DNA of 61,180 nucleotides, the filler included, from Hausera hauseri (taxonomy: Eukaryota), in assembly GCA_046269625.1 (NCBI GenBank). It is 10 parts of 10 records of this genome, joined end to end, with 100 filler letters (N's around TTAATTAATTAA, not from the genome) between each part and the next. Parts side by side here need not be neighbours in the genome. Positions count along the whole stretch, not along the records: positions 23,201 to 37,930 come from JBJURY010555450.1; 9 more parts are not named here. One strand, 5' to 3'. Shown in pieces: positions 19,201-56,896 of this stretch. The stretch's first letter is position 1. Every line of letters starts with the position of its first letter. Under the pieces are notes generated by a model. That model was not told the DNA's origin. It did no database searches and worked only from the letters and a program-made list of their open reading frames with translations. Both the position numbers and the translations under genes were made by a program.

Positions 19201-19982
19201 GTATGTCGTTGATTGTCATCGGTCGTAATAGCGGCTGATATAATGGGTTGCGATTGGATTTGTAATACTTCGTGTGCTTTATCGGCCAATTCAGCTAGTT
19301 TACCTAAGGCTGTAGAATCTTCAACAACGGTTAATAAAGCCCTAATTTGAATGGGTAAGGCATTAAGGAAATATCGTCAAAGTAGACCCCGATTGTGTTC
19401 CTTGGTGACACCTAAATTACGTAAGTAAGCCAATGAGGTACGTAGGAAATCACTAGATTTTTGTGTCCCCATTGCATTTTCATTAAAGTAACGTTGCATT
19501 ATCGAATCAACTGATGGTTCTGTCAGTTTTAGCACATCATTGAACAATTGCGTATAAGGGTCAGGGTGTTGAAAGATGTTCAATAAGTTATGAATTGAGG
19601 CTTTTATGGAGTTTGGTAGAAAGTAGAGTAAATTATGGGCTTTGGGTAACGAGTCTGTAATACCCTTGGATTGTAACCAGAGTTGATGGAAGTGGATCCA
19701 GGTTTTGCTAGAATTTTCATTGTCTATAAAATATTCAGAGCAATGTGGAAGTGTACTGATAGGATTTTTGTGAAAATAATTTGTATCGGTTGAAGTAGGT
19801 TGATGATTTGATTTGGGATAGTACAGAATGGATTTGGGTTTTGTGGTCACCTTATCGATGGTGTCAATGGGTGGTGAAGAAATCATACCGCCGCAGATTC
19901 TATGATGGATATAAATACAGATATAGTGATGTGAGTTTATGATGTGTGGGAGGTCAGTTAAAATGAAGCCATTGTGAGTCAA
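16244..19982 (-). mobile_element. Decayed CsRn1-like Gypsy element (gag-PR-RT-[RNase H deleted]-IN)
   Basis: Gag at 19074-19982. CHCC finger ICIYHAKFWSNTRNCISGC at ~18880-18935. Protease LIDTGTAISLL at ~18630-18660. RT RPCGDYRQLN...MPFGLRNSAQTF...YIYDILV. Integrase RWPEA...SDQG...YHPQSNGLLERFHRTLK, then GPY. Confidence 0.92.
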
Positions 19983-20769
19983 GTAAAAATCGCTGAAGGC
20001 GGTGGTACTGTGAATGAGGGCATATAGTTGTAATGTCTCGAGACGTTGTGTGGTGTGTATTGTCTGTATTAGGTTATTATTAACATAAAGGTAGAGGGAA
20101 AAGGGTGGTTATAGACGGTAAATCGGATAGTGTGGTATCTCGACGAGGTTATTCGAAGTTAAGAAAATTGCTGTTTCTTTTGAAGAATCTGACCGACCTG
20201 TAGACCCCCTATAATTAATGGATCTATTGCGTATATAACTGACGCATACTGAAGAAAATCGACAATAGCTAGAAGGGAACGGATCCTGTTTATTGTCAGA
20301 AACTCTAGTCAGGTACTCGCTGTCATCAGAAGAATAAATCTGGCCGGCTTTGCGATAATGTGCCTTGATTTCACCTCGTATCATTACAGATTCGTTAATT
20401 TCCATAGATGGTTTAGTGTTGGATTATGTTGGTTTGGCAAGGTAAGGCACGGGTGGTGTGTAGTTAACAATGCCACAGGTGGCTGAGCCATTTTATTAAT
20501 TTCTATGTGGTCATAATCGAGTTCACGAATTCGTAAGAGTTTCAAATGCTTCAAAACGTAAAAGTGCGGTTTACCAATTTTGCCCAATGAAGCCAATTTA
20601 AATTTCGATGCAACTTTATCAACAGTTGCAAGATATCTCGAAAGACGATGTCGTAGGTAAAGAATAAAATGAAACAACTGTTGAATAGAATAAACGAAAT
20701 TTATGATCTGAGTAATAAAGAAAAGAAGTGTTTTGCTGAAATGGTATAGAATTACAACGATGGCAAAAG

Positions 20770-21140
20770 TCATGCCGGAATGATAGCAAAAACGCCTTAC
20801 GGACAAAACTAAGAAAAGTTTGAACGATCTTAAAGCGCCAATTCGAAAATTCTTGTGATTCGTATCAATGCCTGATGGAACATGATTCTCATATCGTCGT
20901 CAATTTGAATATTCAAAAGTGAAGGTAGGTCAACAATTTCAGATTTATTCATAACTGAAGGGAGTAACATTGGAATGGCAGATATACAGGATTTAAGAAA
21001 ATCAATTTTTTGTTTTCTATCGGCAGTTATGACATCATCCAATTCTTTAATAACGTTTTCCTGTTTCGTCAACAACGTCGTACGGATAACTTGTTGGTTC
21101 AATAGTTTTAACATAGTATCAAATGCTTGTCGAATGGGAT
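20770..21140 (-). pseudogene. FRY: Furry (FRY/FRYL, MOR2-PAG1 N-terminal region) gene fragment
   Basis: IRQAFDTMLKLLNQQVIRTTLLTKQENVIKELDDVITADRKQKIDFLKSCISAIPMLLPSVMNKSEIVDL...IDDDMR aligns co-linearly, from recall, with FRY [23 protein letters not shown]...[27 protein letters not shown]...MDDELR. Confidence 0.8.
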
Positions 21141-21419
21141 TCGTGCAACTACCTATAGGGGCTGTGTTCGTGTGGTTTAGTTTCATGGAAGGGTAACTTG
21201 ATTTACCTTTTGTGGAAATTTGCCGGTGTTGATTTGTTTGTTGATTCAAATCATTTGTTAAAACTGCTTTGATTCGATCGTGTAACTCGGCTGTTTTTTG
21301 ATAAGTGATATTGTGAGGCTAACGCCTGTGTGCCTTCTAATGACTGGAAAAGCGCTATCGTTGATGAATTAATTGTCAGAATTGGACTCTATTATGGACG
21401 ATGGCCCATCAAAATGAAA

Positions 21420-22930
21420 GACACAATTGATTGGTGAGAAGTATCCGATACCGACTTTCTCAGTGATGATGTTGTGGTTTTAATATGAAACTTAAATCGA
21501 TTAAGAAAAAGATCCCATTTCATCTGATTACGATCTTTCTAATCCATATTAATGAACTGTTGAGGAGTACATCGCAAAAAATCACACATAACCTGTCCAG
21601 ACAATGTACACCTACTCATGTGCCGGAGCGATTAGATGTTCCAACGGCCATAATAAAAATGACATTCACGGCATTGGAATTGGACCGTGAAACCTTTTTT
21701 CCGAATATTGGACAGTCTACCATAGTACAATATAATTGATTTTGAGGGATGCGTCTTTTACAGTTTTTACATTTTAAAAGTATCATGTAACGTAAAGGAT
21801 CTCCAATGTCGATAAAAAAGCTTGTAAACATTCTGTAAATAATGGCGTATTCCGTATCGATTGTCCTCAGTTTAACTGTTTTTACTGTAATAACATTTTG
21901 TATACTACTCAATGGTATAACCGCATCATCGAACTATGAATCCATAGTAATCGAATCCAAAATGCTCCAGATGGTACTTAATAAATCATTTTTGACTTCT
22001 GTATCGTCTTGTAACACTCCTAGACTTTGCAGTCGTTGGCTTTCGACCACATCGGGATTTATAATCGAAGCAGTTCGATTATTAATGACTCCAACAAAAC
22101 CTCGTTTATATTCGTCATATTTGACTTTACAATCAACAAGAGAAAGTACGGTAATTTTCGGTTTCCAGTTAATGTTAATGAATTCGATCCATTCAAGATC
22201 CCATACAGTTATTGGAAACGCTTTACAGGTTTCATCCAATAAAACAACGTCGAGATTATGAAGAATTTTCGGTTGATTATTTTCATCTGTTTGTGATTTT
22301 GATAGTAAATCTAGATACTCGCCAATTTTTTTAGCAATGCTAAAAATGTAAAATGTTGCCCCTTCAATTGGTCTTCTTTCTGTAGGGATTTCATATCTAC
22401 GATCATATTGTACAATGAAACATGATCGGACATGAGATAGAGTAAAGTATTCTGTAATGCAAATAAACAACTCCTGTCAACACCAAAATACTGTTCAATC
22501 CCACTAAATTTCTCGTCCATCGACAATGTAAACGCACATGATGTCTGCACATGATATGTGTGATCCTTTTCTAAATTCACATCAACGGCAACATTGAACA
22601 CAGATACAATGTCGACTGAAATCCACGAAAACATCAAATTCAATTCGTTATCTGTTATTACCAATATGAAATGATGAATACAATTTCTTTGAATAATCCG
22701 ATTTATCCCATGACGTAATGTTTACCATATCACTCAGAATGTCGTAAAGAAAAACTGAACACTCCTTTTAATCGCGTACTTTTTGACGTATTGTTATCAG
22801 TATTTTTAATATGTACAATTCTAATGGGGCTTTTCGTTACAATTAAACCTCGAACTTTTACCGCATTTACATCTGGACTCAAATCACAAATATTAACAAA
22901 TGGATTATAAGGGATTTGAGATCGGTTTTT
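21420..22930 (-). pseudogene. MEIOB: MEIOB (meiosis-specific OB-fold protein) pseudogene, near full length
   Basis: Co-linear motifs: VRGLIVTK...VFSFSLR; VNITSWDKSDYSKKLYSSFHI; VVLLDETCKAFPITVWDLEWI...WKPKITVLSLVDCKVKYD...IINPDVVES; CKNC...C..C; CTPQQF...MKWDLFLNRFK. In-frame stops at 21934 and 21616, plus frameshifts. Putative 46-nt GT-AG intron at 22616-22661. Confidence 0.85.
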
Positions 22931-23276
22931 GATATTCATCAGTTTTCTTTCGTTCCGACTCGAATTACATTTCGAAATATTTGTTTTAATAATATTCACA
23001 CCGGTTTGAACTTGTAAGTAGCCACCATTGTCTTCTGTTCGTTTTCGTTCATTATTATTAACTGGTTGATGATCCTCAGTCAGAGGTTCAGCATTAAATC
23101 NNNNNNNNNNNNNNNNNNNNNNNNNNNNNNNNNNNNNNNNNNNNTTAATTAATTAANNNNNNNNNNNNNNNNNNNNNNNNNNNNNNNNNNNNNNNNNNNN
23201 CAATATTTATTTTTGGTAACAATTTGGTTCTAGAAAAAATCTAAACCAAATTGTTATTAATCATCAATTCACATCA

Positions 23277-23290
23277 TTCCCCTACCCTTA
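23277..23290 (-). promoter_or_regulatory. Polypurine tract
   Basis: Minus strand TAAGGGTAGGGGAA, immediately followed by TG (LTR start). A second copy is at 37735-37748. Confidence 0.85.
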
Positions 23291-23689
23291 AAGGGGGGAC
23301 AGCGAGAATTTGGAATCATCATTCAAGAATCATTCATACAAAATTCATGCACAAACAATTACTAATTAGTTCAAGTTTTAAAATACGACATACGAATGAA
23401 ATATTTAATTACTGGTTAAAATAGGAAATGAAAATATTATACAAAATGTGAAGGTGCTGATAAGATCAATAACCAAAGAGAAAAAGTGAAAAATATATAT
23501 ACAAGTTGCTCAAAATAAAATGATGCAAAAAAAATACAATATATACAAATTGCTAGAGAATACTTAGTCATACAACGATAAAAAATGAGAAATACAATAT
23601 ATACACAAGGTGAAGAAGACAATCAATTGTTAGATAAATGTTCAACGATCAATGTCTTTTTTCGGAGATTTTCGACATCCAGTTTAGTT

Positions 23690-26600
23690 TCAGATGTCTA
23701 AATCCACGTTTTCATATTGAATTCTGGTATGGATATAGTCCTCTTCATCTGGTTTGGAGCCCTTTCGCACACGCTCGATTGGAATCAAAACTGGTTTATT
23801 TGCTTTTATTAGCAGGATATACTTTAATTGACCTCCTTGAAACGATCTTTTGATATTGTCCAATTTTTCCTTGATCAAAAGTAACTGTAATTTGGTGTGG
23901 AATTTAATTCCAAAGTTTATTGGTAATTTCATGACGTTAAGTGTGCCGAGGTATGGAACAAGAAAATAGTCATTTTCCAACTTCTGGTATATCATTCCAA
24001 TTAATTTGTTTACTTCTGTGCTCCATTTGTAAACTTCATTAGAATCCAATGATTTTTCGATATAATAGGGACGTTCTATGTCATGTATTGGTACTGGTAG
24101 AGCTAGATATTCAATTTTAATAATAATACCAAAGTTGAAAACGATATCTTCTTTAGCGGATAAAGTGTCCTTTATTCTCATGGCGATTAAATCTACATCA
24201 GAAGTTTCTGTTTGAATTTGGACATTGACGGTTTTACAAGTTTTGTTCCATTGATCATATTCACGTTCTTGTTCGTCTTCTGACGCCATAAGTTGCAAAA
24301 TATCTTGATTATCTAGTTCAAAGATATCCGAATTCATTTCATCTGATTGCTGTCCGAGCTCAATGTTTTCTGGGGTGTTTAATTCTTCGTCTTCAGCTAT
24401 GGGATCGAATTCTGGTTTGCTGATACTTGCTTCAATATGGTGAATCCAACTGAAATTCTCCAAATATTTTTCCCGATTATAGAATAATTCACCAACGTCA
24501 ATAATATTATTGGATAAGTCATCTGGCATCCAACTGACCTGCCTTAAGTTTTTAATAGTTTTCAATATATCCATTGTAAGATCTATTTTGCCAATACTAT
24601 CTTGTTCGTAGGTATAACCATTTCGGATCTTGGGCAACTTCAACTCCTTGGCCACATTTGTGATATCTATGGCACTGAAGGATTTTTCTGTTACTTCGGG
24701 GTGTTTTAGCAAGTCAATAACACCCGCGAAGTAATTTGAGGGAATATCAAATAATTGGATCATTTTGTGCGTTTCAACACCGACTACAATGGTGCCGAAC
24801 AGCCATTGTATTAGTTCTTTGGTGACGTCGTATAAATCTATCGCGGAATTTTCGATGGAATAAAAATCTATTCCATGACGTCCCGTGTTACAATTGTGGA
24901 TTTTTTCTCTGTTGGCCACAAGTGTCTTGTACAGTATTCGACGATGTTGATCTGTAACAATTACTTCCACAGGTACTGGGGATTTATCCATTTTAAATCC
25001 CAGCGAAACAACCAAAATCCTAATTGTATTAGATTGTCCTGTACAGATATAGTTGGACTTTGTTTCTTGAATCAGTTCTGGGGGACTTTGAGCTATGATT
25101 AGTGGTCTGGGTAGAGCTAAATGCTTTTCCGGGATTATCCATTCGACCATTAATACTACTGGTATTCGATTAGGCCTAATTTGGATGTTCTTCACAGTTA
25201 AAGATGTATTAATCGCCAAGGTTTCCTCTTCCAATAAGGTTGTTATGTTTGACAGCTTGTATTGGCCATCCTTTGCTGTTTTTAGTACTATGGTTCCTCT
25301 GGCATTATGTATGACCAATCCTTCAATTGATGGGTATTCTGTAATAAATTCTTCCAGATTTCTTTGATGTGTCTCGGTGATAAGTACAATCCTCACTTGT
25401 CGATTCAGGGTGAGACCGTATTTGAATTGATTTGGAATTTTCGCCACATGGACGTAAAGAGACTGTGGGTACACGTTGGCTTGTCTTCGGATCGTATTAT
25501 AAAAATTTCTGGCCATGGTATGCGTAAATGAGGAGGTTTTTGTTGCGTATCGAGACAGTAACTGCTCAATTGTAAGGACTTCTGAATGAAACAACGGATG
25601 AGTTGAGGTGGATATCTGTCTATGTCGGATTTGTGACACGTTGACTTTTTGAGTTGGGTTTGACATGATGTATTGAACTTTCTGTAACAGATTTGACTGC
25701 AATTGAAGATTTTGACGATTTTTTGAAAAAGGGGCTGAATGATAAAGTTCATTAGATTTATACCTACCATAAACTGCGTGTGTGTCATGTGGTAACCACA
25801 TAACCAACGAATAAAGAATGAGCGGGCTTAATGTGCGTGGCGCAAGTGTGTGTGTGTCAATTCTAGGTGTCATCAGTTGTGACTGGACACCTGATTTTTG
25901 AGGGCAATAGCACGTGCTAGTGCTAGTAAGATATTTACGGTAAATTTTGGGTGACAGCAAAGCGCCCAGAGCCAAAACTACTAGTAACAATACACTTAAC
26001 ATTATTATTAACAAAGCACATACTGCTATGTTTATTTCTGTGACTTCAATGCTTTGTTTTAGCAATGAATCATTTCGAATATCTTTAGGGCTAAAGTGAA
26101 ATTTTACTACTTTGTTTATTTTTGACAAAGTTTTAATGTTGATTTCAGAATAATGCGTACAATTTTTTACTATTACTAGGTAATTTGTATCTGAGATCAA
26201 CCTTGTACAATAAGCATATTTTTGTTTTCTTTCTAAAATGATTTTTTGCTGGTTATATTGATCTATACATGTTATACTAACCCATTCATTTTTCGGGTTC
26301 ATTTGATAATTCCAAGTAAACGCTATTCTATCTGTTTTTGGATGGCTTATAATAAAGAGTTTACTGGTTATTTCAATTTCGTTGTGTCTAGCTAATTTTT
26401 TATATTCCTTATAGGATATATTACATCTATTTTGCTCGACCATGAATGCAGTATCGAAGAGACATTCATTGAGTCGATAGGGTATCAAACATTTGACACT
26501 AGATTTCACTATCAACTGCAAAATCCATTTGTTGTGTGCTTTTAATTTAAAGATTAGTGCTAACAGAGAATATGAATAGTCTCTAACAACTACTAAGCAA

Positions 26601-29600
26601 GTTTGGCTATTTTCATCATCTAAGTCTACAAAAGCTATTCTATCTTTATAGAAAGTTACAATTCGTATTGCAGTCATATTATTAGCTGATCTTTTTCGAA
26701 ATTGTATACAACCTTTTTTAAAATCTAATCCTATTATTTCTATTTCTTTATTAAATATCTGGTCACTAGGTGTATGGTTTTGATTTTGCTGAATGGCTTG
26801 AATCATTGTATCATAAGAGATGTAGAATTGACCAGAACTGGCTTGAGTACAGGATAATAAAATGATAAATGTGAATATCATTATTAACAAGTTAGTGGAT
26901 AATAAACTTGGTGATTTTAAACCGAATTTTCCTGTATAAGCTGTTGGAGCTTTAGTTACGTTTTGTATAGAGACATTCTCTATCTTTCCTGGAGATTTTT
27001 CTACAAATAAAGTTTGTGGTCTTACTTCGACGACTTTGTATGGTCCTTTGCCGGTACGAGTTAATTTTAATGATCTACCTTTTGTAGTTACTGGATAATG
27101 CGTCATAACAAAATCTCCGATTTTATATGGATTTGATTGAGTCTTTTTGTTGTAATGTTTTGTATATGAATTCTTGTAATCTTCTCTAACAGTCTTTGCT
27201 TGTTCGCCATAGTCATTTAACTGCTTTAACAGTGCTGTATAATTTTCTTCTTGTGGATTGTTAGTAAATGGTAACGCTGTTGGTAGCAAGCTAACATCTA
27301 ATGGGAGTAATGGTAACCGTCCAAACATTAATTCGTACGGTGTTTTGTTTGTACTTCTTGTTGGAGTAGTATTCATAGCAAAAGCTACTGTTGGCAACTT
27401 ATCTGGCCAATTTTTCTGATCTGCTGATACTTGTACGGATAAAATTCCTTGTACAGTTCTATTAGATCTTTCTACTTTCCCGTTGCACTGTGGGTGATAG
27501 GCTGTAGTTAAAACGTGTCTGGTTTGCAAGACTTTTGTGACTTCATTGAATAATTGACTTGTGAAGTATGGTGCTCTATCTGTCAATATCTGTCGCGGTG
27601 CACCTAAAACACATATTAGTTTATTAAACAATTCTAACGCTATGGTTTCTGTTGTCATAGCTTTCAAAGGAATTAGTACAATATAACTTGTATAGTAGTC
27701 TATGAAACTTAATATGTATTTGTAGCCATTTATCGAAGTTGGATATGGACCTGAAATATCCATTGCACATATTTCCATAGGTGCTTTTGGTTCTGGAAGT
27801 GTTCCTAATATTGGCTTTATGCTTCTTCCTCTATCCCTACGGGTGGCGCAAATCTTACAAGATTTGACCCAATTTACTATGTCTTCACTTTGGTTTGGCC
27901 AAAAATATTTAAGCTTAATTCGCTTTATCGTTTTGCCCATTGAGGGATGACCAGCTAGGTGAGAATCGTGTTCTTGCAATAATACTGATTTTATTAGTTC
28001 ATTAGGGATTACAATTAGTGCTTTGTCATGGTGTATATATTTTAGTATATTATGATCTATGATCAATCTGGTTTTGTGATCATTTAGCCATTCTGTTAAT
28101 CTTTTATCAATGTTCGGCATAAGCGATGTACGTACATATTCTTTTATTACATATAGCAGTGGATCATTGTCCTGCACATCTGCTATTTTTTCCGTATTAA
28201 GATTTGCAAAGGCTGTCATCATTTTATTGAATTCATGGTCATCTATTGGCACGATAGCTGCTGTATTTGGTTCAGAAGGATAAATGGTTCGAGATATAGC
28301 GTCGGCATCATTATGGAACTTTCCTGGCACGTATTTGAATTTGGGATTGTAGTTCAGCAATTCTAATTTCCATCGTTGAATCCTATTGTATATCCGTTTG
28401 TTCTTACAGTCAATATTCTCTAACGCTTGGTGATCAGTATATACTATGACAGGATATCCATAAATGTAAAATTCGTAATTTCGTAAGCCTTCTAGTACCG
28501 CTAAAAATTCTAATTCAGTAGTAGAGTAATTTTTCTCTTCTTTAGTTAGTGCTCTTCCACCATAAGCTACTACGTGCTCTATTTGTTCATTAGGATATTG
28601 TTGGGCTAAGATGTAACTTAGGCCGTTTAAGCTTGCATCAGTCTTTAAAATAAATGGTAATTCAAAATCTGGATATTGTAGAATAGGAGCTGAAACCATT
28701 TTCTTTTTCATGATGTCGAAAGCGTATTGATGCTTTTCTTCCCATATATATTTCTTGTCATTGCGCAATAATTCATACAATACACTGTTAATTTGTGAAA
28801 AGTTTTCAACAAAAATACTGTAAAATCCAATAAGTCCTAACCAACATTGCAATTCTTTTTTATTTGTAGGAGCCGGAAATTCTAAAACTTTAGCGACTAT
28901 ATGTGGACTAGTTTCGATTCCTTTGGCTGATATTTTAAAGCCTAAATATGTTACTGAAGTTTGACACCAATCGCATTTGAGTGGGTTCAATTTTAACTTA
29001 GCATCTCTTAATCTTTCAAAGACTTCCTTAAGTTGCTGTATATGCTCTTCCCAAGTTCTAGACGCTATTAAGATGTCGTCTATGTATGATAAGCTTCTAA
29101 TTCCTTTTAGTACTATTCTTATGAATTCTTGAAAGAATGTTGGAGCTGTTTTAAGTCCGAAAGGCATTCTTGTGAACTGATATATCCCAGTATGCGTTTT
29201 AAAAGCTGTTTTCCATTTATCGGCGGCAGTTATGGGTATGTTTAGAAAACCCCATTGTAAGTCTAATGCAGTAAATAAAGTACATCCTTTTAAATCGTTT
29301 ATTATTTCTTTAATTCGAGGAATTGGATAGATATGGTTTTCTAGATATTTGTTTAGCTGCACAAAATTAACACATAATCTTCTTTTTGTAGTATTCTTCT
29401 TTGGTACCATTACTATTGGTGACGCCCAAGAGGCTTGACTTGGTTCAACTATTCCTTTATCTAACCAATCTTGTATTTGTTCTTCCACTTCAGCTTGTAG
29501 TGAATGCGGTGGTGGATACCATTTTGGCATTGGCTGTCTATTCAAATCTATTTCTTTTCCAGTTTTTTCATCAGTTATTAAGTTTAATCGAAATTCAACG

Positions 29601-32600
29601 AGATCTGTACATCCGATATCTACATCATTAAGCGCAAAGATTTCTGAAAACTCTTTTATTAATTTAATCATGTCTTTTAATTGCTCCTCACTAACTCTTT
29701 GCTTAATGTTTGCTATCAATTGTTGGAAAATTTTGTGCTCATTCAACTCTGTCTGAGTGGTTGCTGCTAAGAAATCAGTGATATTTTGATCAAAGGTACG
29801 AAAAAATTCACCTATTCTAGTATTAGGATGTAAGATTTTTGTACGTTCAGAACAATTGGCTACTACAATCGGAATAGTGCCATTCTGTACTACTGTACAA
29901 ATTGTGGAAAAGTAGTATCCTCTTTCGAAATCTTTTGGTTCGAATTTTACTATTATATTCTCGGGTGCTAAAAGCTTTCCTTTAATTGTCATTTCGCAGT
30001 AAGGTGGTATAATTATTTCATCCATTATCCATACAGCATTTTTATACTTTGGATTGTCTTGTAGTGGTAGATGATGATTTATACAGATTTGTCCTGTGGA
30101 TAAGTCCATTACTGAGTTTTTCAGTTTTCTTAGAACGTCTACTCCAATAATCATTCTTGGGTATAATTCTTTCATTACTTGAATTGTAGCGGTTACTTTT
30201 TGTTCATAAATAACAATCTCAGTAGTCCAATATCCTATAGGAAACACTGTTTGTCCGAAAAGTGATACATTACCACTATCAGATGGGTTTGCTAATCTTA
30301 CTTCATGTTGATAATTCAATGGAATTACTGTTTGGTGTATCAAAGTTACTGTTGCTCCAGTATCTATTAAAGCACTTATTTCTGCATCTCGAATATGCAC
30401 AGTGGTTTGCGGTCTTGGATCATAAGTCCGACTGATTGATTGTAACTGCTTTTCTGTCGGGTTCCTAACCAAAGGTAACAACGAGTATACTCCAGCAGTT
30501 CTGATAACGCCGTTGTCAACAATAAATCTTCCATTTAAGGGCATTTCAGAAGTACTGTTTTCTATTAAGTTTGAATTAGTTAATAGTGGTGATGTTGGTC
30601 TGGATGAAGTAAATGTTGGTGGTGAGGTTGGTCTAGATGTTATCGTTGTAGTTGGCTTCCATTTCTGTGCTAAAGATGCTAAATCCGGATATTGACTTGT
30701 TCTTTTGAGTTGCTCATTTTCTACCTCATTAGTACGAGTGGGTGCTCCGGGTACCACGAATAATTTCCTATAATTTTCATGTTCGCAGTATGGGTCTCTG
30801 ATTTCCTTTTCGATTTTTTCCGTAATTAATGGCAAATTCTGAATATTTGTACTTGTCGACGGTAATTCTGTATAAGTATTGTTTTCAACATTCAGCCTCG
30901 GTGGAGATTTTGGTGGTGGTTTCTTTTTTCTATTATCTAAATTAACATGTTGCTCCACCAGATTCTTCCATCTTTTTTCTTCATGTGCTTTAAGTATTTT
31001 TCCGAAAGGTGTAAAAACAGCTGATAATATTTTTAGTGAGAATCCGGTAAGCGTGTATATTTCATAAGCATTTAGCAGTGATGATAATATGGCTTTTGCC
31101 GTCTGTATACTTAAATAAATTGTGAAAATTCCTGCTGATACGGTACCAAATTTTATGAATCCTCCCCATAATGTTTTTAAGAAGTTCATTGTTACTTCTT
31201 TATAATGGTCAGGACTTAATAGCTTTTCCCACCTTGCATCTTGTACTCCGTCATCTAATATACGATGTAATGCTTTATTTAATGCTTGTTCTCTTTGAAC
31301 AGGGTATCTCAATGCTTGAATCATGTCGTTTATCTCGTCTCTTGTGTAGAGAGTTGTTTTTGACAGATCTGTGAATAAGTTATTCTCTACAGCGTGTCGC
31401 AACGCTGTCATTGTAAGTCGTTTGGGTGTTTTATGCGGCTTTTTCCGCTCTGGTAGAACTACCCATGTGCCTTCATTGTCATATTTTATGTAAGGCTGAT
31501 ATAATGTTGTACAATTCACTATTTTAGTAGGCTCAGTGTTTTTATCCAACAGTATACGTGTTATTGGTTGTACATATCTAATCTTTTTCTTGTAGGTTAC
31601 TGGAATTTCAATGTAACATATATTCTTTAGAATTACTAGTGGCACTTCGACTCGTTTACATTTGTATGTAAATAGAGCTTCTCCAATGATTTTGCCTTGT
31701 ATGCCTTCGCCTAATGGCATGGTTATTGCCGCCATTTCTGGGTTGGTAGCTAAGATAGCTAGTCTATTTCTTAGGGTTTCAAGATTAACCTTACAGAAAT
31801 TTTCGATTATTTCTGTGTACATTTCATCAATAGTTTTCTGAGTTATATAAAATAAGGTGTCATCTCTGATGTTAAAATGATCGCCTATGTTTAGGAAACT
31901 TTTAATATCAACTGGTACATTATCTGCATCTGGCACTTCTGAATCTGCAATATAATAGGAGGGATAGTTTGTGGAATGAATTGCTTTTCCACACTTAAAC
32001 GTAGGTTCTTGTTGAATAAATTTCACTCCTCCTACAAGGTTGGCAGACATGATAATTGTAGGCGTTTTAATTTCTGGTATCTGGTTTACGTTGGTCTGTT
32101 CGAAATTCGTTTCGAAGTATTTAGCGTATCTTTTGCCTGAAGTCACGTTAAATATGCCTTTCTTTATCAGCACTAGATGGCAGTCAAATTTCTTTGGTAC
32201 ATCCCATATCAAAACTGAAGTTATAGTGTGGCAATATCCTTTGCCTAATTTACAGAATGCCGCATCCATCATGGCTTTAGTGTTCGTATCAAAGTTGTAT
32301 GTCTGTTGTTTTATTTGAATTCTATATTGGTCATGTACTATCAAACCTGATTGCGGTCCTTTGCCTAAATCATATGTTCCTCCATTACAATTTCCGCCTA
32401 AATCTTTAGTTCCAACAACATATCTTTCAGTTTGATGCACTTCACCTATACCGGCTTTTAATTCCATTCTATCATATCTCATAAATCCTGTGTCAATTGC
32501 TACTTTGCAAGCTTCAGGTGTTACCGCTTCTGGTTCCGGTATGGTTGTTGGGATAATGATAGTTTCGTGACTATGCATTCCGCAATAGGTTACTGTTCTT

Positions 32601-35600
32601 GATCTTGTTAGCATACATTCGTAGCCTTTTACTTGCACTGATGCTCGATCGTGATAAATATATAATGTCTTTTGTACTGTAGTTATATTTCTGGGATGTG
32701 CTTCTGGACATGAATCTAGATCCATTAAGGAGTAGTAGTCACCTTCATAAATATGTTCGCAATCATAGGCCAGAATGTTATTGCTTCTTTTAATTAGAGA
32801 CATAAGCATTAATATTAGAAATAATATTGAAGAATATGAAGAATTACTTCCTTTTGATCTCATATCCTTTATTTCAATTTCTAAGGACTTATTTAATTCA
32901 GTAGTTATTTTGGGTATCAAAATTTCTTCTTTGTCTATTACCGTTTTTAATACTGCATCAGCTTCTTCTTCGAGATCTACTGTATTTCGGACATTTCTTA
33001 GGAATAAATCATTCCATGAGCATTTGTTTGGCACTATGTTTTGGCTCAACTGTATAATCTTTCCGGTAACGGTTTTTACGTCACTTTGATCATGAATATC
33101 AGTTACTAATAGGCAAATACTTTTTTCTAGATTTTTTCGAGTAGGCTTTTCTATTAATATTTGGGCCAAATCTTCTGACGTAATATTTTTATACGCTGGA
33201 ATTTTCTTTAACTTTTTGATGTATTTCAATAATTCAAGTACTCTAATTCTCCATTTCTGATTAGAATTAGGTTTTGCCATGCCTCTATCAATATCAAATA
33301 TTTCTTTAATTAATCCTTTTACTTCTTTATATTCTTTATAGAGTTGTGGGACTTCGTAATCTTGTAACTGTTTTGCAAACTGCTGAGCTAGCGTAATAGT
33401 TTTTGTTCGCTTTGTTTTAGCAGCTTTATTTAAATCAAGCAGGGTGCATTTTGCAACGTTTTCTAACATTTTAGTGTCATCATTGCAGACTTCGTTTAAG
33501 TTAATAATTTCTGGCAGTATCTGTATTGGCTTAAAATCGCTTTCTTCTATTTCTATCATATAGGTTTTTTCTGGTAACATACCTAAATCCGAGACATAAT
33601 CATCTAGATTCAATGTTCGACCTTTAAAAGTATAGTTTAGCTCGTTCAATGGTTTGTCAATGCTTGCTCTGATATGAATGTCCAAATGTCTAACAGTTTC
33701 GTTGGTAGAAATTTTAATTTGTGGCATTATTAAACTGTTGAATTTTGGCACAACATTTATGTATTCATTTTCAAGAGTTATGGACTGTCTGATTTTTGCA
33801 CCTAATAATTTTAATAGCACTTTTGGAGTTGCATTATATAAATACTCATCGGCCGCTAATGGGATCAACTTATGTACGATTCTTCGTATTTCATCAGTAT
33901 TAGGTTTTTCTGCCAAATATGTTACTAGCAACGTTTCTAGAAAACTTGGGTGATTCTTAAAGGCATCTATTTGCTTCGATAGTTCATTTTCTGAACTCAA
34001 TTGTTGAGAATCTATTTTTTGTATAGCAACTTTTATTAAACCTTCTCTTCGTGGTCTGTGTGGGTCTTCATCAGAGTCCGAGGATATTACTACAGTATCA
34101 GATTTCTTTTCTTCTGTATCTGATAATACTATTACTGTGTCTAACTTTTTTCCTTCGGTATCTGTCAATGGCATTGTCTTTGATGAAGTAGAGTCTGATT
34201 CTTTATCTAAGTCTGTACTAAACAACATGTTATTTCTAATTTTATTTACTGTTGCTATGAATTCTTGCAATTTCTGTTCTTTTTCATCATTAGACTCGAT
34301 GCCTAACTTTCTAATTTCTTTTAGAATATTTATTAATTCTTTTTTCTGGTTAGTATCAATATCTTCATTATCTTTTAATATTTTCCGTACTTCGATCTTT
34401 AGTTCTGATATAGAGCTGATGAATTCTGTAGTGATTTCTAGTAGCTTACTTTGAATATCATTTAATGTTTCTAGTTTTTCCAAACTAAGAGGTTCTTTCT
34501 GACTTCTTTGGGTTAATATTTGAAGAGCACTCCATTTTTGTAGTTCAGAGGGTGATAATGCTTGATCTAATACGTCAGCTAACTCGATATTTGCAACAGT
34601 GAATTCGTCTATTTTATTTTTTATAAACACGGATTTATTTTCTAATATTTTAATATTGTCATTTAAAAGTTGCTTTTGTTTAGTTGATAATTTCTTAGTT
34701 TTTAATTTGTGCTGAACTAGTTTAACAATTACATCATCTAAATATTGCATTGTTGGATATTCTTTATCTGTAACTTCCTGTGCTTCTTTGAGCAAGTTTT
34801 CAAACTCAATTTCTTCAGGAGTTTTATCTTTATTTAATACTTCCACAATTACATCATCAATTCGTTTTTTCTGTTCTTCTTGAATTTCAATCTTTCGTGT
34901 TTCATAAAGCTCTTTCATAAGCTTATTGTAATTATCTTTTGATGAACTAGCAGTAGGTTGAAAATATGCATTAATAGATTCAAGTTTCTCTAATCCAAAA
35001 GGTATTTGTCCTCTAGCCATTATATCTAAATCTTTAATCATTTGATTCATGACTTTTCCTTTAGTTTCTTCAGAGATTTCTTGATCATCATGTATAAATT
35101 TATCAGCAAATTTTCTTGGCGGAGATTTTGAATTTTTTCTAGATTTTTTCAACTTTGTTAAAGTTTCTTCTGGAATGCTTTCTGGCACCTTTTTAGGCTT
35201 TTTTCCAGTGTAGCCAGGAGATATATTTTTTATTATTTTCTTTCCATCCTTATCAACAGCTGCTACTGGTACTGGCAAGGCATCAAAAGCCATTTGTTCT
35301 AATTCTGTTAATTGCTTTCCGGCAAAATATTTTCTTACTGCATTTTTATGCGCTTCAATAATTGCTAATTTAGCTTCCATAACTTCTTCATCATCTGTAC
35401 CACATGAATAAGGTGTACGATTTACACTAAAATTTTGTAGCTTTGCAAAATCCTTTGAATTTTGATTTGACATGGGCCAATGTTCAAGATAGTATTCAGT
35501 AGAAGGTCCAACAGTTTTTTCATTGAAGGCTGCAGATTTAGTGGTAGGCTCACTTTTTATTGGTAACTTATCATTTGGAGTTCTGCAATTATTAGCTGTA

Positions 35601-36439
35601 TGTCCATTACGTTGGCATCTATAACATTTTATAACTCTTCCAGCTCTATTCACATCTTCTCTACCATCATTCTGATAATTATTTCCTTTATAAGGTGGTC
35701 TATTGCCGTATTGATTTCTATTTTGGTTACTATTTTCATTTTGACTACTTGACGGATTCCGTCTACTTTCTTCTTGTGAATTGTTTTTTGATACATTAGC
35801 GTTAGGTGCTTGATAATTATTATCTCTATTTGTTTTTGGAGGTCTAAAAGCCTCAAAGTTCTGTGCCATTTTTAAAGCATCAGCAAATGTATTTGGACTT
35901 CCAGCCAAAACCTTATATTTTAAATCTGGTACTAAACCTCGGATAAATTGCGTAGACAGTAAAATATCAGTGTCAACCTTGATATCCTCGACATCATCCT
36001 TATTTCCTTTTCTCATTTTAGTTAATTTAATTGCTTCAACATAATTTGAAATTAATTGTCTTAAAGAATATGCAAATTGAGTCACTGATTCATTTTTTTG
36101 AAACTTATTTTGAAAAATTATTAATTGTTGTTGAGGGGTCATGGTCGGCAGAAATCTATCTATCATTGCTATGCTTATAGTATTCCAATTTTTTCGTTCA
36201 GCATCACTTAAATCATTGTAAGCATCTATAGCTATATCAGTTAAATACAAAGGTAAACGTCTAATTTGATCTTTTTCACTTAATTCTAATGCGGTACTTT
36301 GCGATTTATAAGTTTTCAAAAATGGTAACAACTTATCGGGTTGACCATTAAATTTCTCTACATCGATTTTAAAGTTTCTGAAATCATACACATTTACATT
36401 ATCTTTAGCCATATTTTGGTTAAATTTAAGTTTTTCCAA
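23690..36439 (-). CDS. 4249-aa polyprotein: Gag - accessory insert - chuvirus-like glycoprotein - PR - RT - RNase H - IN - membrane FN3-like protein - exonuclease-like domain (first ATG at 36412)
   Basis: Capsid-like region (FNGQPDKL...ESVTQFAYSL...FIRGL). CCHC CYRCQRNGHTANNC at 35585-35626. AYDC and CGMHSH glycoprotein motifs. DTG at 30356-30364. YIDD at 29075-29086. RNase H TDAS...ELE...TDH...ADAISR. Integrase HHCC, DDE and GPY (27038-27046). No stop or frameshift. Confidence 0.95.
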   Translation of the reverse strand: MEKLKFNQNMAKDNVNVYDFRNFKIDVEKFNGQPDKLLPFLKTYKSQSTALELSEKDQIRRLPLYLTDIAIDAYNDLSDAERKNWNTISIAMIDRFLPTMTPQQQLIIFQNKFQKNESVTQFAYSLRQLISNYVEAIKLTKMRKGNKDDVEDIKVDTDILLSTQFIRGLVPDLKYKVLAGSPNTFADALKMAQNFEAFRPPKTNRDNNYQAPNANVSKNNSQEESRRNPSSSQNENSNQNRNQYGNRPPYKGNNYQNDGREDVNRAGRVIKCYRCQRNGHTANNCRTPNDKLPIKSEPTTKSAAFNEKTVGPSTEYYLEHWPMSNQNSKDFAKLQNFSVNRTPYSCGTDDEEVMEAKLAIIEAHKNAVRKYFAGKQLTELEQMAFDALPVPVAAVDKDGKKIIKNISPGYTGKKPKKVPESIPEETLTKLKKSRKNSKSPPRKFADKFIHDDQEISEETKGKVMNQMIKDLDIMARGQIPFGLEKLESINAYFQPTASSSKDNYNKLMKELYETRKIEIQEEQKKRIDDVIVEVLNKDKTPEEIEFENLLKEAQEVTDKEYPTMQYLDDVIVKLVQHKLKTKKLSTKQKQLLNDNIKILENKSVFIKNKIDEFTVANIELADVLDQALSPSELQKWSALQILTQRSQKEPLSLEKLETLNDIQSKLLEITTEFISSISELKIEVRKILKDNEDIDTNQKKELINILKEIRKLGIESNDEKEQKLQEFIATVNKIRNNMLFSTDLDKESDSTSSKTMPLTDTEGKKLDTVIVLSDTEEKKSDTVVISSDSDEDPHRPRREGLIKVAIQKIDSQQLSSENELSKQIDAFKNHPSFLETLLVTYLAEKPNTDEIRRIVHKLIPLAADEYLYNATPKVLLKLLGAKIRQSITLENEYINVVPKFNSLIMPQIKISTNETVRHLDIHIRASIDKPLNELNYTFKGRTLNLDDYVSDLGMLPEKTYMIEIEESDFKPIQILPEIINLNEVCNDDTKMLENVAKCTLLDLNKAAKTKRTKTITLAQQFAKQLQDYEVPQLYKEYKEVKGLIKEIFDIDRGMAKPNSNQKWRIRVLELLKYIKKLKKIPAYKNITSEDLAQILIEKPTRKNLEKSICLLVTDIHDQSDVKTVTGKIIQLSQNIVPNKCSWNDLFLRNVRNTVDLEEEADAVLKTVIDKEEILIPKITTELNKSLEIEIKDMRSKGSNSSYSSILFLILMLMSLIKRSNNILAYDCEHIYEGDYYSLMDLDSCPEAHPRNITTVQKTLYIYHDRASVQVKGYECMLTRSRTVTYCGMHSHETIIIPTTIPEPEAVTPEACKVAIDTGFMRYDRMELKAGIGEVHQTERYVVGTKDLGGNCNGGTYDLGKGPQSGLIVHDQYRIQIKQQTYNFDTNTKAMMDAAFCKLGKGYCHTITSVLIWDVPKKFDCHLVLIKKGIFNVTSGKRYAKYFETNFEQTNVNQIPEIKTPTIIMSANLVGGVKFIQQEPTFKCGKAIHSTNYPSYYIADSEVPDADNVPVDIKSFLNIGDHFNIRDDTLFYITQKTIDEMYTEIIENFCKVNLETLRNRLAILATNPEMAAITMPLGEGIQGKIIGEALFTYKCKRVEVPLVILKNICYIEIPVTYKKKIRYVQPITRILLDKNTEPTKIVNCTTLYQPYIKYDNEGTWVVLPERKKPHKTPKRLTMTALRHAVENNLFTDLSKTTLYTRDEINDMIQALRYPVQREQALNKALHRILDDGVQDARWEKLLSPDHYKEVTMNFLKTLWGGFIKFGTVSAGIFTIYLSIQTAKAILSSLLNAYEIYTLTGFSLKILSAVFTPFGKILKAHEEKRWKNLVEQHVNLDNRKKKPPPKSPPRLNVENNTYTELPSTSTNIQNLPLITEKIEKEIRDPYCEHENYRKLFVVPGAPTRTNEVENEQLKRTSQYPDLASLAQKWKPTTTITSRPTSPPTFTSSRPTSPLLTNSNLIENSTSEMPLNGRFIVDNGVIRTAGVYSLLPLVRNPTEKQLQSISRTYDPRPQTTVHIRDAEISALIDTGATVTLIHQTVIPLNYQHEVRLANPSDSGNVSLFGQTVFPIGYWTTEIVIYEQKVTATIQVMKELYPRMIIGVDVLRKLKNSVMDLSTGQICINHHLPLQDNPKYKNAVWIMDEIIIPPYCEMTIKGKLLAPENIIVKFEPKDFERGYYFSTICTVVQNGTIPIVVANCSERTKILHPNTRIGEFFRTFDQNITDFLAATTQTELNEHKIFQQLIANIKQRVSEEQLKDMIKLIKEFSEIFALNDVDIGCTDLVEFRLNLITDEKTGKEIDLNRQPMPKWYPPPHSLQAEVEEQIQDWLDKGIVEPSQASWASPIVMVPKKNTTKRRLCVNFVQLNKYLENHIYPIPRIKEIINDLKGCTLFTALDLQWGFLNIPITAADKWKTAFKTHTGIYQFTRMPFGLKTAPTFFQEFIRIVLKGIRSLSYIDDILIASRTWEEHIQQLKEVFERLRDAKLKLNPLKCDWCQTSVTYLGFKISAKGIETSPHIVAKVLEFPAPTNKKELQCWLGLIGFYSIFVENFSQINSVLYELLRNDKKYIWEEKHQYAFDIMKKKMVSAPILQYPDFELPFILKTDASLNGLSYILAQQYPNEQIEHVVAYGGRALTKEEKNYSTTELEFLAVLEGLRNYEFYIYGYPVIVYTDHQALENIDCKNKRIYNRIQRWKLELLNYNPKFKYVPGKFHNDADAISRTIYPSEPNTAAIVPIDDHEFNKMMTAFANLNTEKIADVQDNDPLLYVIKEYVRTSLMPNIDKRLTEWLNDHKTRLIIDHNILKYIHHDKALIVIPNELIKSVLLQEHDSHLAGHPSMGKTIKRIKLKYFWPNQSEDIVNWVKSCKICATRRDRGRSIKPILGTLPEPKAPMEICAMDISGPYPTSINGYKYILSFIDYYTSYIVLIPLKAMTTETIALELFNKLICVLGAPRQILTDRAPYFTSQLFNEVTKVLQTRHVLTTAYHPQCNGKVERSNRTVQGILSVQVSADQKNWPDKLPTVAFAMNTTPTRSTNKTPYELMFGRLPLLPLDVSLLPTALPFTNNPQEENYTALLKQLNDYGEQAKTVREDYKNSYTKHYNKKTQSNPYKIGDFVMTHYPVTTKGRSLKLTRTGKGPYKVVEVRPQTLFVEKSPGKIENVSIQNVTKAPTAYTGKFGLKSPSLLSTNLLIMIFTFIILLSCTQASSGQFYISYDTMIQAIQQNQNHTPSDQIFNKEIEIIGLDFKKGCIQFRKRSANNMTAIRIVTFYKDRIAFVDLDDENSQTCLVVVRDYSYSLLALIFKLKAHNKWILQLIVKSSVKCLIPYRLNECLFDTAFMVEQNRCNISYKEYKKLARHNEIEITSKLFIISHPKTDRIAFTWNYQMNPKNEWVSITCIDQYNQQKIILERKQKYAYCTRLISDTNYLVIVKNCTHYSEINIKTLSKINKVVKFHFSPKDIRNDSLLKQSIEVTEINIAVCALLIIMLSVLLLVVLALGALLSPKIYRKYLTSTSTCYCPQKSGVQSQLMTPRIDTHTLAPRTLSPLILYSLVMWLPHDTHAVYGRYKSNELYHSAPFSKNRQNLQLQSNLLQKVQYIMSNPTQKVNVSQIRHRQISTSTHPLFHSEVLTIEQLLSRYATKTSSFTHTMARNFYNTIRRQANVYPQSLYVHVAKIPNQFKYGLTLNRQVRIVLITETHQRNLEEFITEYPSIEGLVIHNARGTIVLKTAKDGQYKLSNITTLLEEETLAINTSLTVKNIQIRPNRIPVVLMVEWIIPEKHLALPRPLIIAQSPPELIQETKSNYICTGQSNTIRILVVSLGFKMDKSPVPVEVIVTDQHRRILYKTLVANREKIHNCNTGRHGIDFYSIENSAIDLYDVTKELIQWLFGTIVVGVETHKMIQLFDIPSNYFAGVIDLLKHPEVTEKSFSAIDITNVAKELKLPKIRNGYTYEQDSIGKIDLTMDILKTIKNLRQVSWMPDDLSNNIIDVGELFYNREKYLENFSWIHHIEASISKPEFDPIAEDEELNTPENIELGQQSDEMNSDIFELDNQDILQLMASEDEQEREYDQWNKTCKTVNVQIQTETSDVDLIAMRIKDTLSAKEDIVFNFGIIIKIEYLALPVPIHDIERPYYIEKSLDSNEVYKWSTEVNKLIGMIYQKLENDYFLVPYLGTLNVMKLPINFGIKFHTKLQLLLIKEKLDNIKRSFQGGQLKYILLIKANKPVLIPIERVRKGSKPDEEDYIHTRIQYENVDLDI
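31013..32830 (-). other. Chuvirus-type (class III-like) envelope glycoprotein domain inside the polyprotein
   Basis: Hydrophobic signal ILFLILMLMSLI, then AYDC...YSLMDLDSC, C..TRSRTVTYCGMHSH, CNGG, CKLGKGYC...W, GE..FTYKC..VEV, CYIEIPV...P.TRIL...C, and a C-terminal TM region LWGGFIKFG...GFSLKILSAVF. Confidence 0.82.
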
Positions 36440-36944
36440 AAGAACAATAGGTAAATTAGTGCTTGTTTTAGCAAGACTTTGACTTCTAGTTAGTCTTCTG
36501 TTATTTTCTATTTTGGCTCTGAGAACTTTTACTGTTTTTTGATATATATATACCCTTTGTAATTTTATTAATTATTACTTTAGGTATACTAGTGATTTTT
36601 AAGTGTGCGACTTCTTGACTGTCAGAGTCAGATGTCTAAACTTGGCAAAAAGGTAACTTTAAATGTTTAATTACTGTATTAGTATTTTTCCCCCACCCTT
36701 AAGAGGTTAGTAGGATTTTACACAAAAAGAGGAATAAGAAGTTCAGACACGAGTGCTGCTTCTTTCGACGATAACAACTTTTTTTTTATCAAGACAACGT
36801 GACCACCTTCGTGGTATGGGTCAATGAATTCAAGAAAGTTATCGTAATTAGTAAAGTAGATATGTGAACCGTTAAGTTTCACAGAAAATGGAGCGATAGG
36901 ACGTTTAAAGAAGTTAACAAGACGATCAAACATCAAAAGATTTG

Positions 36945-36957
36945 TGTTCGGGCGCCA
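36945..36957 (-). promoter_or_regulatory. Primer-binding site, tRNA-Lys(UUU) type
   Basis: Minus strand TGGCGCCCGAACA matches the first 13 nt of the tRNA-Lys3 PBS and lies 5 nt after a CA LTR end. Confidence 0.85.
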
Positions 36958-36962
36958 ATTAT

Positions 36963-37734
36963 TGTATTTCACGATTTTTTGAAGAATCAATGAAATACTC
37001 TGAGGGAAAAAATAAAGTTTATAACTTTAAATGGTGTGTTAAAATTTTGTAATGAATGCGGAAAAGGTGGAGATTGATTAATTAACTTCGGTTTTCTGTG
37101 AACCGAGTTTAAGAATTTTACTTAGAACAATTAAAAAGATTTAACGAACAAATATAATGAACACAACAAATACAATAATTCCTTATAGGAATCCAAATAC
37201 CAAAAAGATTCTTGACAAATTAAATGGTAACTATTTGCACCAAAATAAAATGACAAGAAAGTTCAAATAAAATATTACTCTTGTAGAGTAACCAATACTA
37301 ATTCAATAATTGCAATTGTTCTTACAGAACAATTAAATTCCAATTATTCAATAATAAGACAATAAATGAAGCTTTACCCGAGGATCTAGTTCAGCACAAG
37401 ACTAAGCATAAACAGCAGAGAATATCATCAAACAATTTTTCATCAAAAATTTACGCTCAAACAATTTTTTCTTCCATACTGAAATTCGTTTCAGTATATA
37501 TACCTTTGATGCTTCTAATCTTAGTGACAAAAAGGGTATAGAACATGTTATTCAGCGATTGTTAAGCGTTCTAAATTTGGGTATAAATTTGGGGTAGAAA
37601 AAATCCTCACTAAATACATTACCAAACTATTTATGGTAACAAAACAGGGGTAGAAAACTAATATTTATTTTTGGTAACAATTTGGTTCTAGAAAAAATCT
37701 AAACCAAAGTGTTATTAGTCATCAATTCACAACA
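36963..37734 (-). repeat. LTR (~770 bp)
   Basis: Bounded by the PPT+TG and CA+PBS. The first 76 nt recur at 23201-23276 with 4 differences. TATA-like TATATATA at ~37495. Confidence 0.8.
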
Positions 37735-39012
37735 TTCCCCTACCCTTAAAGGGGGACAGCGAGAATTAGAGTCATCATTCAAGAATCATTCATACAAAAT
37801 TCATACACAAACAATTACTGATTAGTTCAATTTTAGAATACAACATACGAATGAAATATTTAATTATTGGTTGAAAATAGGAAATGAAAATATTATACAA
37901 AAATGTGAAGGTGCTAAAGAGAAAAAGTGANNNNNNNNNNNNNNNNNNNNNNNNNNNNNNNNNNNNNNNNNNNNTTAATTAATTAANNNNNNNNNNNNNN
38001 NNNNNNNNNNNNNNNNNNNNNNNNNNNNNNTTACATTGCTGCCCTGGGGGGTAGATTTTTCAATGACTGTATTACAACAAGTCTGCAGAGTCAATACACA
38101 AAACTTTCGACTCAGACTCTGATATTTCTGGTGCTTCCAAATCCCAGCTGCTCAAAAATTGCCTTGACTCCAACTACTTGACAGGTTTGTAGGATCGGAC
38201 ATGAAACTTTTGACTCCAACATTTCTAGTTCTTCTGTTCTAGATACCCAAAAAATTTCACTGACAATGTCCAAAGATTTACAAATTCTACCTTTACCTAC
38301 TACCAGTTATTAATCAGAGAAACGCCTGACCAGTGTCTCTCACAGCATGTACTCCATAGCAGAAGTGGCATCCCTTGATGTTTCTAGAGCATGAATTCTG
38401 CTGTCCATTTTATAATGGGTGGGTGAACATCAGGAGTTATGTTTTTGTAAACCATGGGTCCAGAACCAAAGTTAAACCCGGGTCACCTGGACCAAAACCT
38501 AAACAGCAGGCGAATGACTTTTTGACTACACTACTGCGGCTCTCTAGAAAGAACGTAGCTGGTAGCAGCCTATCAGCCTCCTGCACTGTTTTTTTTATTT
38601 CCACTATCACGAGATACAGGAAATGTATAACATGAATATCAGACTGTCACGATCTCAAAATGGACAAAGTGTTTAATCCTAGAACCACAGTTAAAGTTTG
38701 GTACTGGCAACAAAGTAAAACCCACATATCATAGCCAAACACAGACTCGGCTAACTAAATAAACAGATGTGAGGACACATATGAACACTTGAGGACATAT
38801 TAGAAGTGACTAGGTCAGTGACAGTTAACACTCTCGGGAAGCTCTTGATTTGGTAATCTGAGAAAGTATGGGCATTACTTGAATGTCAGAAGGTTCCTAA
38901 ATCAAACAATCAACCAGTCTAGCTCTAAGATGGAAAACAAACAGTAAAATTACGTGTGTGAGATTAATCAACCAGGAGGGTTAGTACAATGAAATGCACT
39001 AATCAGGAAGGT

Positions 39013-56791: not shown

Positions 56792-56896
56792 TAGTTACTT
56801 AGTTTTACTTAGCCTTATTATATATCCCACATTACTTGATCAAGAAGACAAAACGATATTTTTATACAAGATTTATTAACAAAGATATTTACGTAT

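Follow-up and report, generated by a model that had tools for sequence, protein, structure and literature searches.

In a 61,180-nucleotide (nt) window of the Hausera hauseri assembly (GCA_046269625.1), contig JBJURY010555450.1 (23201-37930) carries a retroelement that encodes Gag, an envelope glycoprotein (Env) and Pol, in that order, in one uninterrupted reading frame. We consider the element to be probably a Ty3/Gypsy retrotransposon with intact coding capacity and of a Gag-Env-Pol (Burro-like) kind described before, with a polyprotein threaded through the endoplasmic reticulum and cut by signal peptidase, leaving Pol on the cytoplasmic tail of the fusogen, and with a YPDL motif in that tail predicted to recruit ALIX/ESCRT for enveloped budding. 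Descriptions of this layout go back to 2019, and it marks no new lineage; interest rests mostly on the tail motif and on extra C-terminal domains.

The frame lies on the minus strand, which the initial annotation had not stated, as do all features of the element described here. It is stop-free from 36571 to 23690 (4293 codons stop to stop; chance of such a frame about 1e-150), and the plus strand is closed. The single giant in-frame polyprotein that had been annotated stands, but its length of 4249 amino acids (aa) takes a TTG (36439) as the start; read from its first ATG, at 36412, the open reading frame (ORF) has 4240 aa (23690-36412). Amino acid numbers are counted here from 36571 and equal those of the initial annotation plus 44.

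A Pfam scan, motifs and, for the membrane segments, hydropathy bear out the annotated order of Gag, insert, signal peptide, glycoprotein, transmembrane (TM) segment, protease (PR), reverse transcriptase (RT), RNase H (RH), integrase (IN), and extra domains. Gag (aa 54-330; 35582-36412) has a capsid-like region and one CCHC knuckle (zf-CCHC, aa 314-330). The Retrotrans_gag match (aa 108-178) is weak (E 0.044; E 0.0034 on the fragment alone), and BLAST matches of Gag are the N-termini of relatives P0002, P0006, P0009, P0012, P0017, and P0021. Further along are Monjiviricetes_fusion (aa 1249-1889, E 1e-74), RVP (aa 2052-2152, E 1e-8; aspartic protease, 30116-30418), RVT_1 (aa 2389-2547) and RT_RNaseH (aa 2635-2741) in the RT and RNase H region (28289-29407), and H2C2 (aa 2855-2913) and rve (aa 2929-3027) in an integrase with a GPY motif (26942-28009). 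The catalytic motifs are intact (DTGA, YIDD, the RNase H acids, HHCC, and D,D-35-E). The PR-RT-RH-IN order with these motifs, a primer-binding site (PBS) after the 5' long terminal repeat (LTR) and a polypurine tract (PPT) before the 3' LTR place the element in Ty3/Gypsy (Metaviridae), in agreement with the annotated type of Pol. The PR-RT spacer (29762-30049) has no significant Pfam match; by eye it may be a degenerate dUTPase fold like the one recorded in Burro.

Env follows a predicted internal signal peptide (aa 1246-1267; 32771-32836; hydropathy), and an equivalent segment stands before Env in most relatives. The ectodomain (31154-32770) has 14 Cys, 3 sequons, and no RxK/RR furin site. 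Hydropathy and alignment to relatives predict a membrane-proximal and TM region (30986-31153), which is only moderately hydrophobic (19-mer 1.43) yet aligned with clear TM peaks in relatives. A profile of 120 Env sequences matches 33 PDB sequences, all of them herpesvirus gB (best E 0.002). The AlphaFold model has a mean pLDDT of 88.9 and one helix of about 48 residues, and all 35 Foldseek matches listed for it are herpes gB (best E 2e-14, TM-score about 0.4). Env is a class III fusogen, and the viral glycoprotein fold put forward for it is borne out by both searches. Thus a gB-type ectodomain lies between a signal peptide and a TM segment in an uninterrupted GAG-ENV-POL frame. When metagenome and viral contigs were searched for related loci with the Env or the Pol of the element itself, no relative came up.

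Variation among aligned contigs argues for purifying selection on env: 22 of the 25 env variants listed are synonymous, whereas 21.5% of random changes would be. This agrees with one side of the earlier suggestion, that the intact frame reflects recent activity or selection. Synonymous variants also make up 6/6 of those listed in the tail and 7/8 in pol, compared with 3/10 in the insert, 1/4 after IN, and 1/3 in gag; these lists hold the best-supported rows only and favor conserved stretches.

The YPDL late-domain-type motif (aa 1961-1964; 30680-30691) is in the spacer between the Env TM and PR. It was first noticed in this element and then counted in relatives, with the element itself excluded. 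Tails of 12 relatives, taken as TM-to-protease spacers, were counted; P0007 and P0016 were left out (no tail), as was P0008 (a near-copy of P0153). Strict YPxL occurs in 6 of these tails (shuffle mean 0.32; 0 of 2000 shuffles reach 6). Of 103 stand-alone G proteins, 25 have it within their last 70 aa (shuffle mean 1.8, maximum 6 in 500). The looser [LIVM]YP is found in 9/12 and 55/103, far above shuffles, and P[TS]AP (PTAP/PSAP) is enriched in the stand-alone tails (15/103; shuffle mean 0.9). The tail consensus is hydrophobic-Y-P-x-hydrophobic. YxxPhi without the proline is not enriched (8/12 versus 7.0 expected; 33/103 versus 35.7 expected), nor is reversed PY. PTAP, PPxY, and YPxL are all absent from the element's Gag and insert, and 2 of 9 relatives have a late motif there.

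By these counts a YPxL-type motif in the Env tail is conserved across the family, and it likely recruits the cell's budding machinery (ALIX/ESCRT). The enrichment of [LIVM]YP and P[TS]AP in stand-alone Monjiviricetes-type G proteins (P0018-P0152) concerns chuvirus-like and BEL/Pao Envs generally. YPDL is the ALIX-binding sequence of EIAV (equine infectious anemia virus) p9 (PMC8402826), a budding role of the glycoprotein tail has been proposed for hartmaniviruses (PMC6261641), and a louse mononegavirus has YPDL in ORF I, not in G (PMC6394706). Among the literature matches listed, with subscription papers outside coverage, none describes a late domain for the Env tails of chuviruses or Gypsy elements.

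From what is directly established (a single ORF with its order of domains and intact catalytic motifs, the class III fold of Env, selection on env, and conservation of the tail motif) we infer the steps of a mechanism. Signal peptide 1 would insert co-translationally and be cleaved near the conserved A-Y/F-D-C start of Env; Gag and the insert would stay cytosolic on a membrane stub, with Env lumenal. The Env TM would bring the chain back to the cytosol, with the result that PR-RT-RH-IN is joined to Env and not to Gag. Signal peptide 2, after IN, would produce another surface protein of type I, which is a candidate for attachment or adhesion. Membrane co-clustering may activate PR and so free capsid and nucleocapsid (CA/NC), RT, and IN; tRNA-Lys would prime reverse transcription, and ESCRT-driven budding would proceed via YPDL and ALIX. 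The SUMO-like domain, the motifs resembling SUMO-interacting motifs (SIMs), and the nuclease-like domain probably serve as decoys that counter silencing by the host, the weakest of these steps and a guess from anatomy. The scheme supports the earlier expectation that processing needs signal peptidase as well as the element's own protease. The 1:1:1 ratio of Gag, Env, and Pol proposed with it would be valid for the primary product only, as splicing or degradation could shift it.

Extended to the family, the idea becomes more tentative, and we hold it as a possibility with less than even odds. The chuvirus/gB-type G of Gag-Env-Pol elements and of stand-alone relatives may carry ESCRT late domains in its own tail, with Env, not Gag, driving budding and carrying Pol in, a post-IN surface protein providing attachment, and, in the present lineage, SUMO decoys and a dead RNA exonuclease directed against silencing. 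Assembly would then be unlike that of any studied retrovirus.

Several points weigh against the proposed reading of the element. Its topology is predicted from hydropathy, with a weak Env TM, and particle formation, fusion, cleavage, and binding are likewise predictions. Half of the polyprotein tails have no strict YPxL, nematode-type L011 has neither YP nor a signal peptide after IN, and the tails share ancestry, so that motif counts are not independent events. The Bcl-2-like domain of Burro is not demonstrable here. The branches of Env (1.65) and RT (2.1) are long, unconstrained RT searches failed to put the element into the clade of its relatives, and the contig may combine pieces of several copies.

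An alternative that we judge unlikely, though deserving of weight, is that the element is real but uses Env and the tail motif for transfer inside cells or from cell to cell (endosomal sorting, exosome loading, cell fusion) and not for the release of free infectious particles. YPxL also conforms to the YxxPhi sorting consensus, and ALIX acts in exosome formation. The papers covered show no particle for the Gag-Env-Pol kind. Against this, only the proline-containing form is enriched in the tails, and PTAP/PSAP is enriched in the stand-alone ones, which points to ESCRT rather than AP-2; an enrichment of the ESCRT type does not, however, separate exosomes from virions.

The evidence for the junctions of the 12.7-kb frame consists of assembled contigs, including those of runs X1 and X2. 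In all, 9945 contigs align to the element, 7092 of them at 90-95% identity, and summed contig depth, which is not a copy number, is in the thousands over Gag, Env, and Pol and in the tens over the 3' part, with far fewer contigs on the insert and the 3' end. These figures, a short-contig assembly, contig ends that are 96% alike with 3' untranslated region (UTR) before the 5' LTR, and the fact that no piece listed spans the element would suit an assembly mosaic of related copies, in which the insert and exonuclease tail may belong to another subfamily than the Env-Pol core. In contrast, X1 pieces with zero differences and similar depth (24-46) form an overlapping series between 34300 and 32825 that reaches the opening codons of the signal peptide, and a 1285-nt X1 piece with 1 difference (29652-30936) extends from the tail of Env across PR. 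Further X1 zero-difference pieces cover parts of Env and its TM (31010-31172, 31253-31684, and 31808-31976). For the Gag/glycoprotein and glycoprotein/PR junctions that were to be confirmed this support is partial, with gaps inside Env among the pieces listed, and X1 may be the source sample. The layout recurs in independent proteins, and we consider a mosaic quite improbable.

This recurrence was seen among 18 long Env matches, picked from the best 150 of 1060. Ten of them have a protease in the same chain, and five also an RT. Gag, Env, RT, and IN stand in one chain in P0002, P0017, and L011, and P0153 also has this layout; other elements with the annotated Gag-glycoprotein-Pol order have thus been found. 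In a quick Env tree of 50 of 123 usable rows, 15 polyprotein Envs (this one and 14 others) form one side of a branch with an SH-aLRT (approximate likelihood ratio test) support of 85 (99 with P0142), and the other side consists of 34 G proteins, nearly all stand-alone. The element's Env is inside the polyprotein group on its long branch. The Env of L011 is only distantly related (E 1e-21 to the Env profile). An RT-RH tree with 52 Gypsy RTs leaves the element unplaced. With 25 rows dropped, a tree constrained to group it with seven Gag-Env-Pol relatives scores 6.6 log units above the free tree (p-AU, approximately unbiased test, 0.63). A single RT clade with these relatives is neither rejected nor proved by such trees, and an independent origin gains no support from them.

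The initial annotation had proposed an independent lineage with an uncatalogued domain order. Neither part is supported: the order was in substance already catalogued by papers of 2019 and 2026 (PMC6431247, PMC13524379), Env nests among polyprotein Envs, and one RT clade is not rejected. That a separate Gypsy lineage captured a chuvirus-like G on its own would suit the long RT branch, a best RT-RH identity of 42% that is equal for a Gag-Env-Pol relative and an env-less Gypsy, and the lack of monophyly of GAG-ENV-POL elements in POL (PMC13524379), but we give it hardly any credence, with Env inside the polyprotein clade, a helical and ubiquitin-like module and a post-IN surface protein common with relatives, and a constrained RT tree that scores higher.

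Some relatives have features of their own. L011 (401-7303) is a 2300-aa Gag-Env-PR-RT-RH-IN ORF with a nematode-type-looking Env, eukaryotic DNA inside a bacterial metagenome-assembled genome (MAG), and P0003, too, is assigned to a MAG, of Flavobacteriaceae. The polyproteins of several relatives (P0153, P0005, P0004, P0006, P0011, and P0012) have two to six protease-like repeats, and P0153 also has ankyrin and C2H2 domains.

The insert between Gag and Env contains two tandem SIM-like stretches (aa 812-834; 34070-34138). The pattern, written after inspection of the sequence, matches twice; among 20000 shuffles 13 give one match and 0 give two, and by the strict pattern none of 12 relatives has such motifs. 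Downstream is a helical and ubiquitin/SUMO-like module (aa 886-1009; 33545-33916). Its PF11976 match is below the curated cut-off (E 0.0031), and a profile of four relatives, with which the module is common, matches it at E 5e-6. A Bcl-2-like domain before env scores 5.8 bits here, is equaled by 4 of 500 shuffles, and is out of register; it is clear by eye in P0004, P0007, P0016, and P0021 (Pfam Bcl-2 E 0.001 for P0007).

After the integrase, hydropathy and sequons predict a second surface protein (25949-26908) with a signal peptide, a 269-aa ectodomain (8 Cys, 5 sequons), and a TM. Another signal peptide, with a hydrophobic segment further on, is present here and in all 5 same-clade relatives that extend past IN (P0002, P0003, P0005, P0013, and P0153), with a marginal TM in P0002. 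All Atlas matches of this protein are below 0.9, with FN3/Ig-like leads only. The ectodomain is mostly unalignable with those of relatives (best E about 0.01) and has no PDB match at E 10 and only a weak NCBIfam match (E 0.066). P0002 has a clear immunoglobulin domain in its post-integrase surface protein (aa 2461-2560, E 4e-8).

Among the relatives compared, only this element continues past the second TM, for about 750 aa. This part includes an RNase T/REX-type (DEDD) exonuclease-like domain (24542-25024; Atlas 0.94, 185 shared features, 29 of 30 matches RNase_T). The top PDB match is SDN1, at a non-significant E of 0.3-0.4; there is no Pfam match, and a single-sequence fold has a pLDDT of 35. 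The domain is apparently catalytically dead, because the SDN1 alignment has a methionine in place of the Exo II aspartate and, by eye, D-x-E is missing from the first strand and H-x4-D from the last motif, at the presumed DEDD motif positions. Neither for aa 3230-4293 nor for this domain was a homologue found by word search or among ORFs of 89 Gypsy loci. A single X2 contig links the LTR end with the region after the second TM (25728/36985), at a depth of 4.8 and with 42 nt on its shorter side; it is possibly an internally deleted copy.

The element, about 14.5 kb in total, occupies the whole of its contig, with artificial spacers on both sides. The window is made of ten unrelated short contigs (4-15 kb), and its neighbors carry no genomic context; 100-nt N spacers with a central stop cassette are at 5431, 10175, 16144, 23101, 37931, 42086, 47344, 51905, and 56224. 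The 5' LTR (36958-37734, about 777 nt, 3' end plus or minus a few nt) has its TG start directly after a PPT. It is followed by a PBS (36946-36957) that is the exact complement, 12/12, of the tRNA-Lys(UUU) 12-mer in the supplement of PMC13524379. The second PPT is at 23277-23289, next to the first 76 nt of the 3' LTR (23201-23276), which the contig end cuts. The contig ends are identical at 244/254 nt (about 96%; 23458-23202), a block of about 75 nt of LTR and about 180 nt of 3' UTR and PPT, so that 3' UTR and PPT of another or collapsed copy stand before the 5' LTR (37735-37915; PPT motif 37747-37735). This order and the likeness of the ends indicate that they derive from a collapsed or tandem repeat, and X1 record 1 connects 23201 to 37658 in the alignment to the element. 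The two ends are probably from different copies, since 4% divergence ill fits one neutrally decaying copy that keeps a 12.9-kb open frame, and the insertion is then not datable by LTR identity. The annotated PBS and PPT are thus upheld, whereas the LTR pair is incomplete; with both ends inside the repeat, no full pair or target-site duplication is readable within the contig. The 5' UTR contains one more near-copy of the PPT motif, the third, about 250 nt past the PBS (36700-36688, minus strand), and the sequence there has no unusual or stable folding (z 1.28).

The other contigs of the window carry further mobile elements and repeats. A decayed BEL/Pao element (RVT_1, Peptidase_A17) is at 42186-47343 (plus), and the frame upstream of it (43292-43921) has by eye a ubiquitin-like domain ending in LRGG, with no Pfam match. 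Two contigs (52005-61180, minus) have a fragmented protein-primed DNA polymerase B and an endonuclease VII and are Polinton/adintovirus-like. A decayed env-less Gypsy (16326-23100, minus; RT at 17171-17809) lies beside exon-like frames with a likeness to an OB-fold protein such as MEIOB and without a Pfam match. One whole contig (10275-16143) is a 5.9-kb degenerate GAAC/GAAA microsatellite. Cys/His-rich repeats at 2205-3265 (minus) have no Pfam match and are similar to NF-X1/ZNFX1 zinc fingers.

The element raises the question of how a Gag-Env-Pol polyprotein works when the signal peptidase cut parts Pol from Gag, and a conserved ALIX-type motif in an otherwise unalignable Env tail is a concrete handle on Env-driven budding and Pol packaging. 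Chuvirus-type viruses are not known to have a recognized matrix protein, and the tail motif may suggest their exit route.

Among known systems, nematode endogenous retroviruses (ERVs) reportedly have a continuous gag-env-pro-pol ORF. The non-canonical nematode ERVs of Sacco et al. 2022, as cited in the literature, have Env before pol; by the supplement of PMC13524379 their Env is of another subgroup than the one here, and by eye L011 resembles the nematode type. The rotifer LTR elements Vesta and Juno have an active DEDDy exonuclease as ORF3 (Rodriguez et al. 2017, PMC5408684). They are similar in having a DEDD-superfamily nuclease 3' of pol in a Gypsy-like element, but theirs is a separate ORF, RNase D-like and with intact catalytic residues, whereas the domain here is in frame, RNase T/REX-like, and apparently dead.

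GAG-ENV-POL Gypsy elements with a gB-type ENV have been described as "ancient errantiviruses" in Nematoda, Bryozoa, and Platyhelminthes (Chary and Hayashi 2026, PMC13524379). The Platyhelminthes C1a elements share gene order, gB-type fold, and multi-copy habit with this element. By eye, the Cys pattern and motifs of domains I-II match six Schmidtea C1a sequences and not bryozoan or nematode ones, a likeness that may point to a flatworm host. The RH-to-IN spacer (about 95 aa) has a length compatible with the RNase H and "mini" domain bridge of ancient errantiviruses, and the six Smed elements have no called PBS, in contrast to the perfect tRNA-Lys(UUU) PBS here. The terms polyprotein, exonuclease, late domain, ESCRT, cytoplasmic, and immunoglobulin are absent from the main text of that paper. 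For such elements, our literature search found no description of a YPxL Env tail motif, a post-IN surface protein, SIM-like motifs, or a C-terminal RNase T-like domain.

The closest description is that of planarian Burro/GYPSM1, for which an env in frame between gag and pol was described in 2019 (Arkhipova and Yushenova, PMC6431247); the comparison here is with this description. The section concerned mentions no second surface protein, tail motif, or exonuclease-like domain, and no literature match listed describes a signal peptide for Burro. Both elements have one giant ORF (4,873 aa in Burro) with an N-terminal Gag and an in-frame env between gag and pol, the Burro env matches mononegavirus fusion glycoproteins, and both have a PF11976 SUMO-like domain upstream of env, the one here below the cut-off. 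Burro has 2-3 zinc knuckles where this element has one. With no Pfam match to the MATH, BIR, and ankyrin domains of Burro, and with a length of about 14.5 kb versus >30 kb, the element is Burro-like and is not filed as Burro itself.

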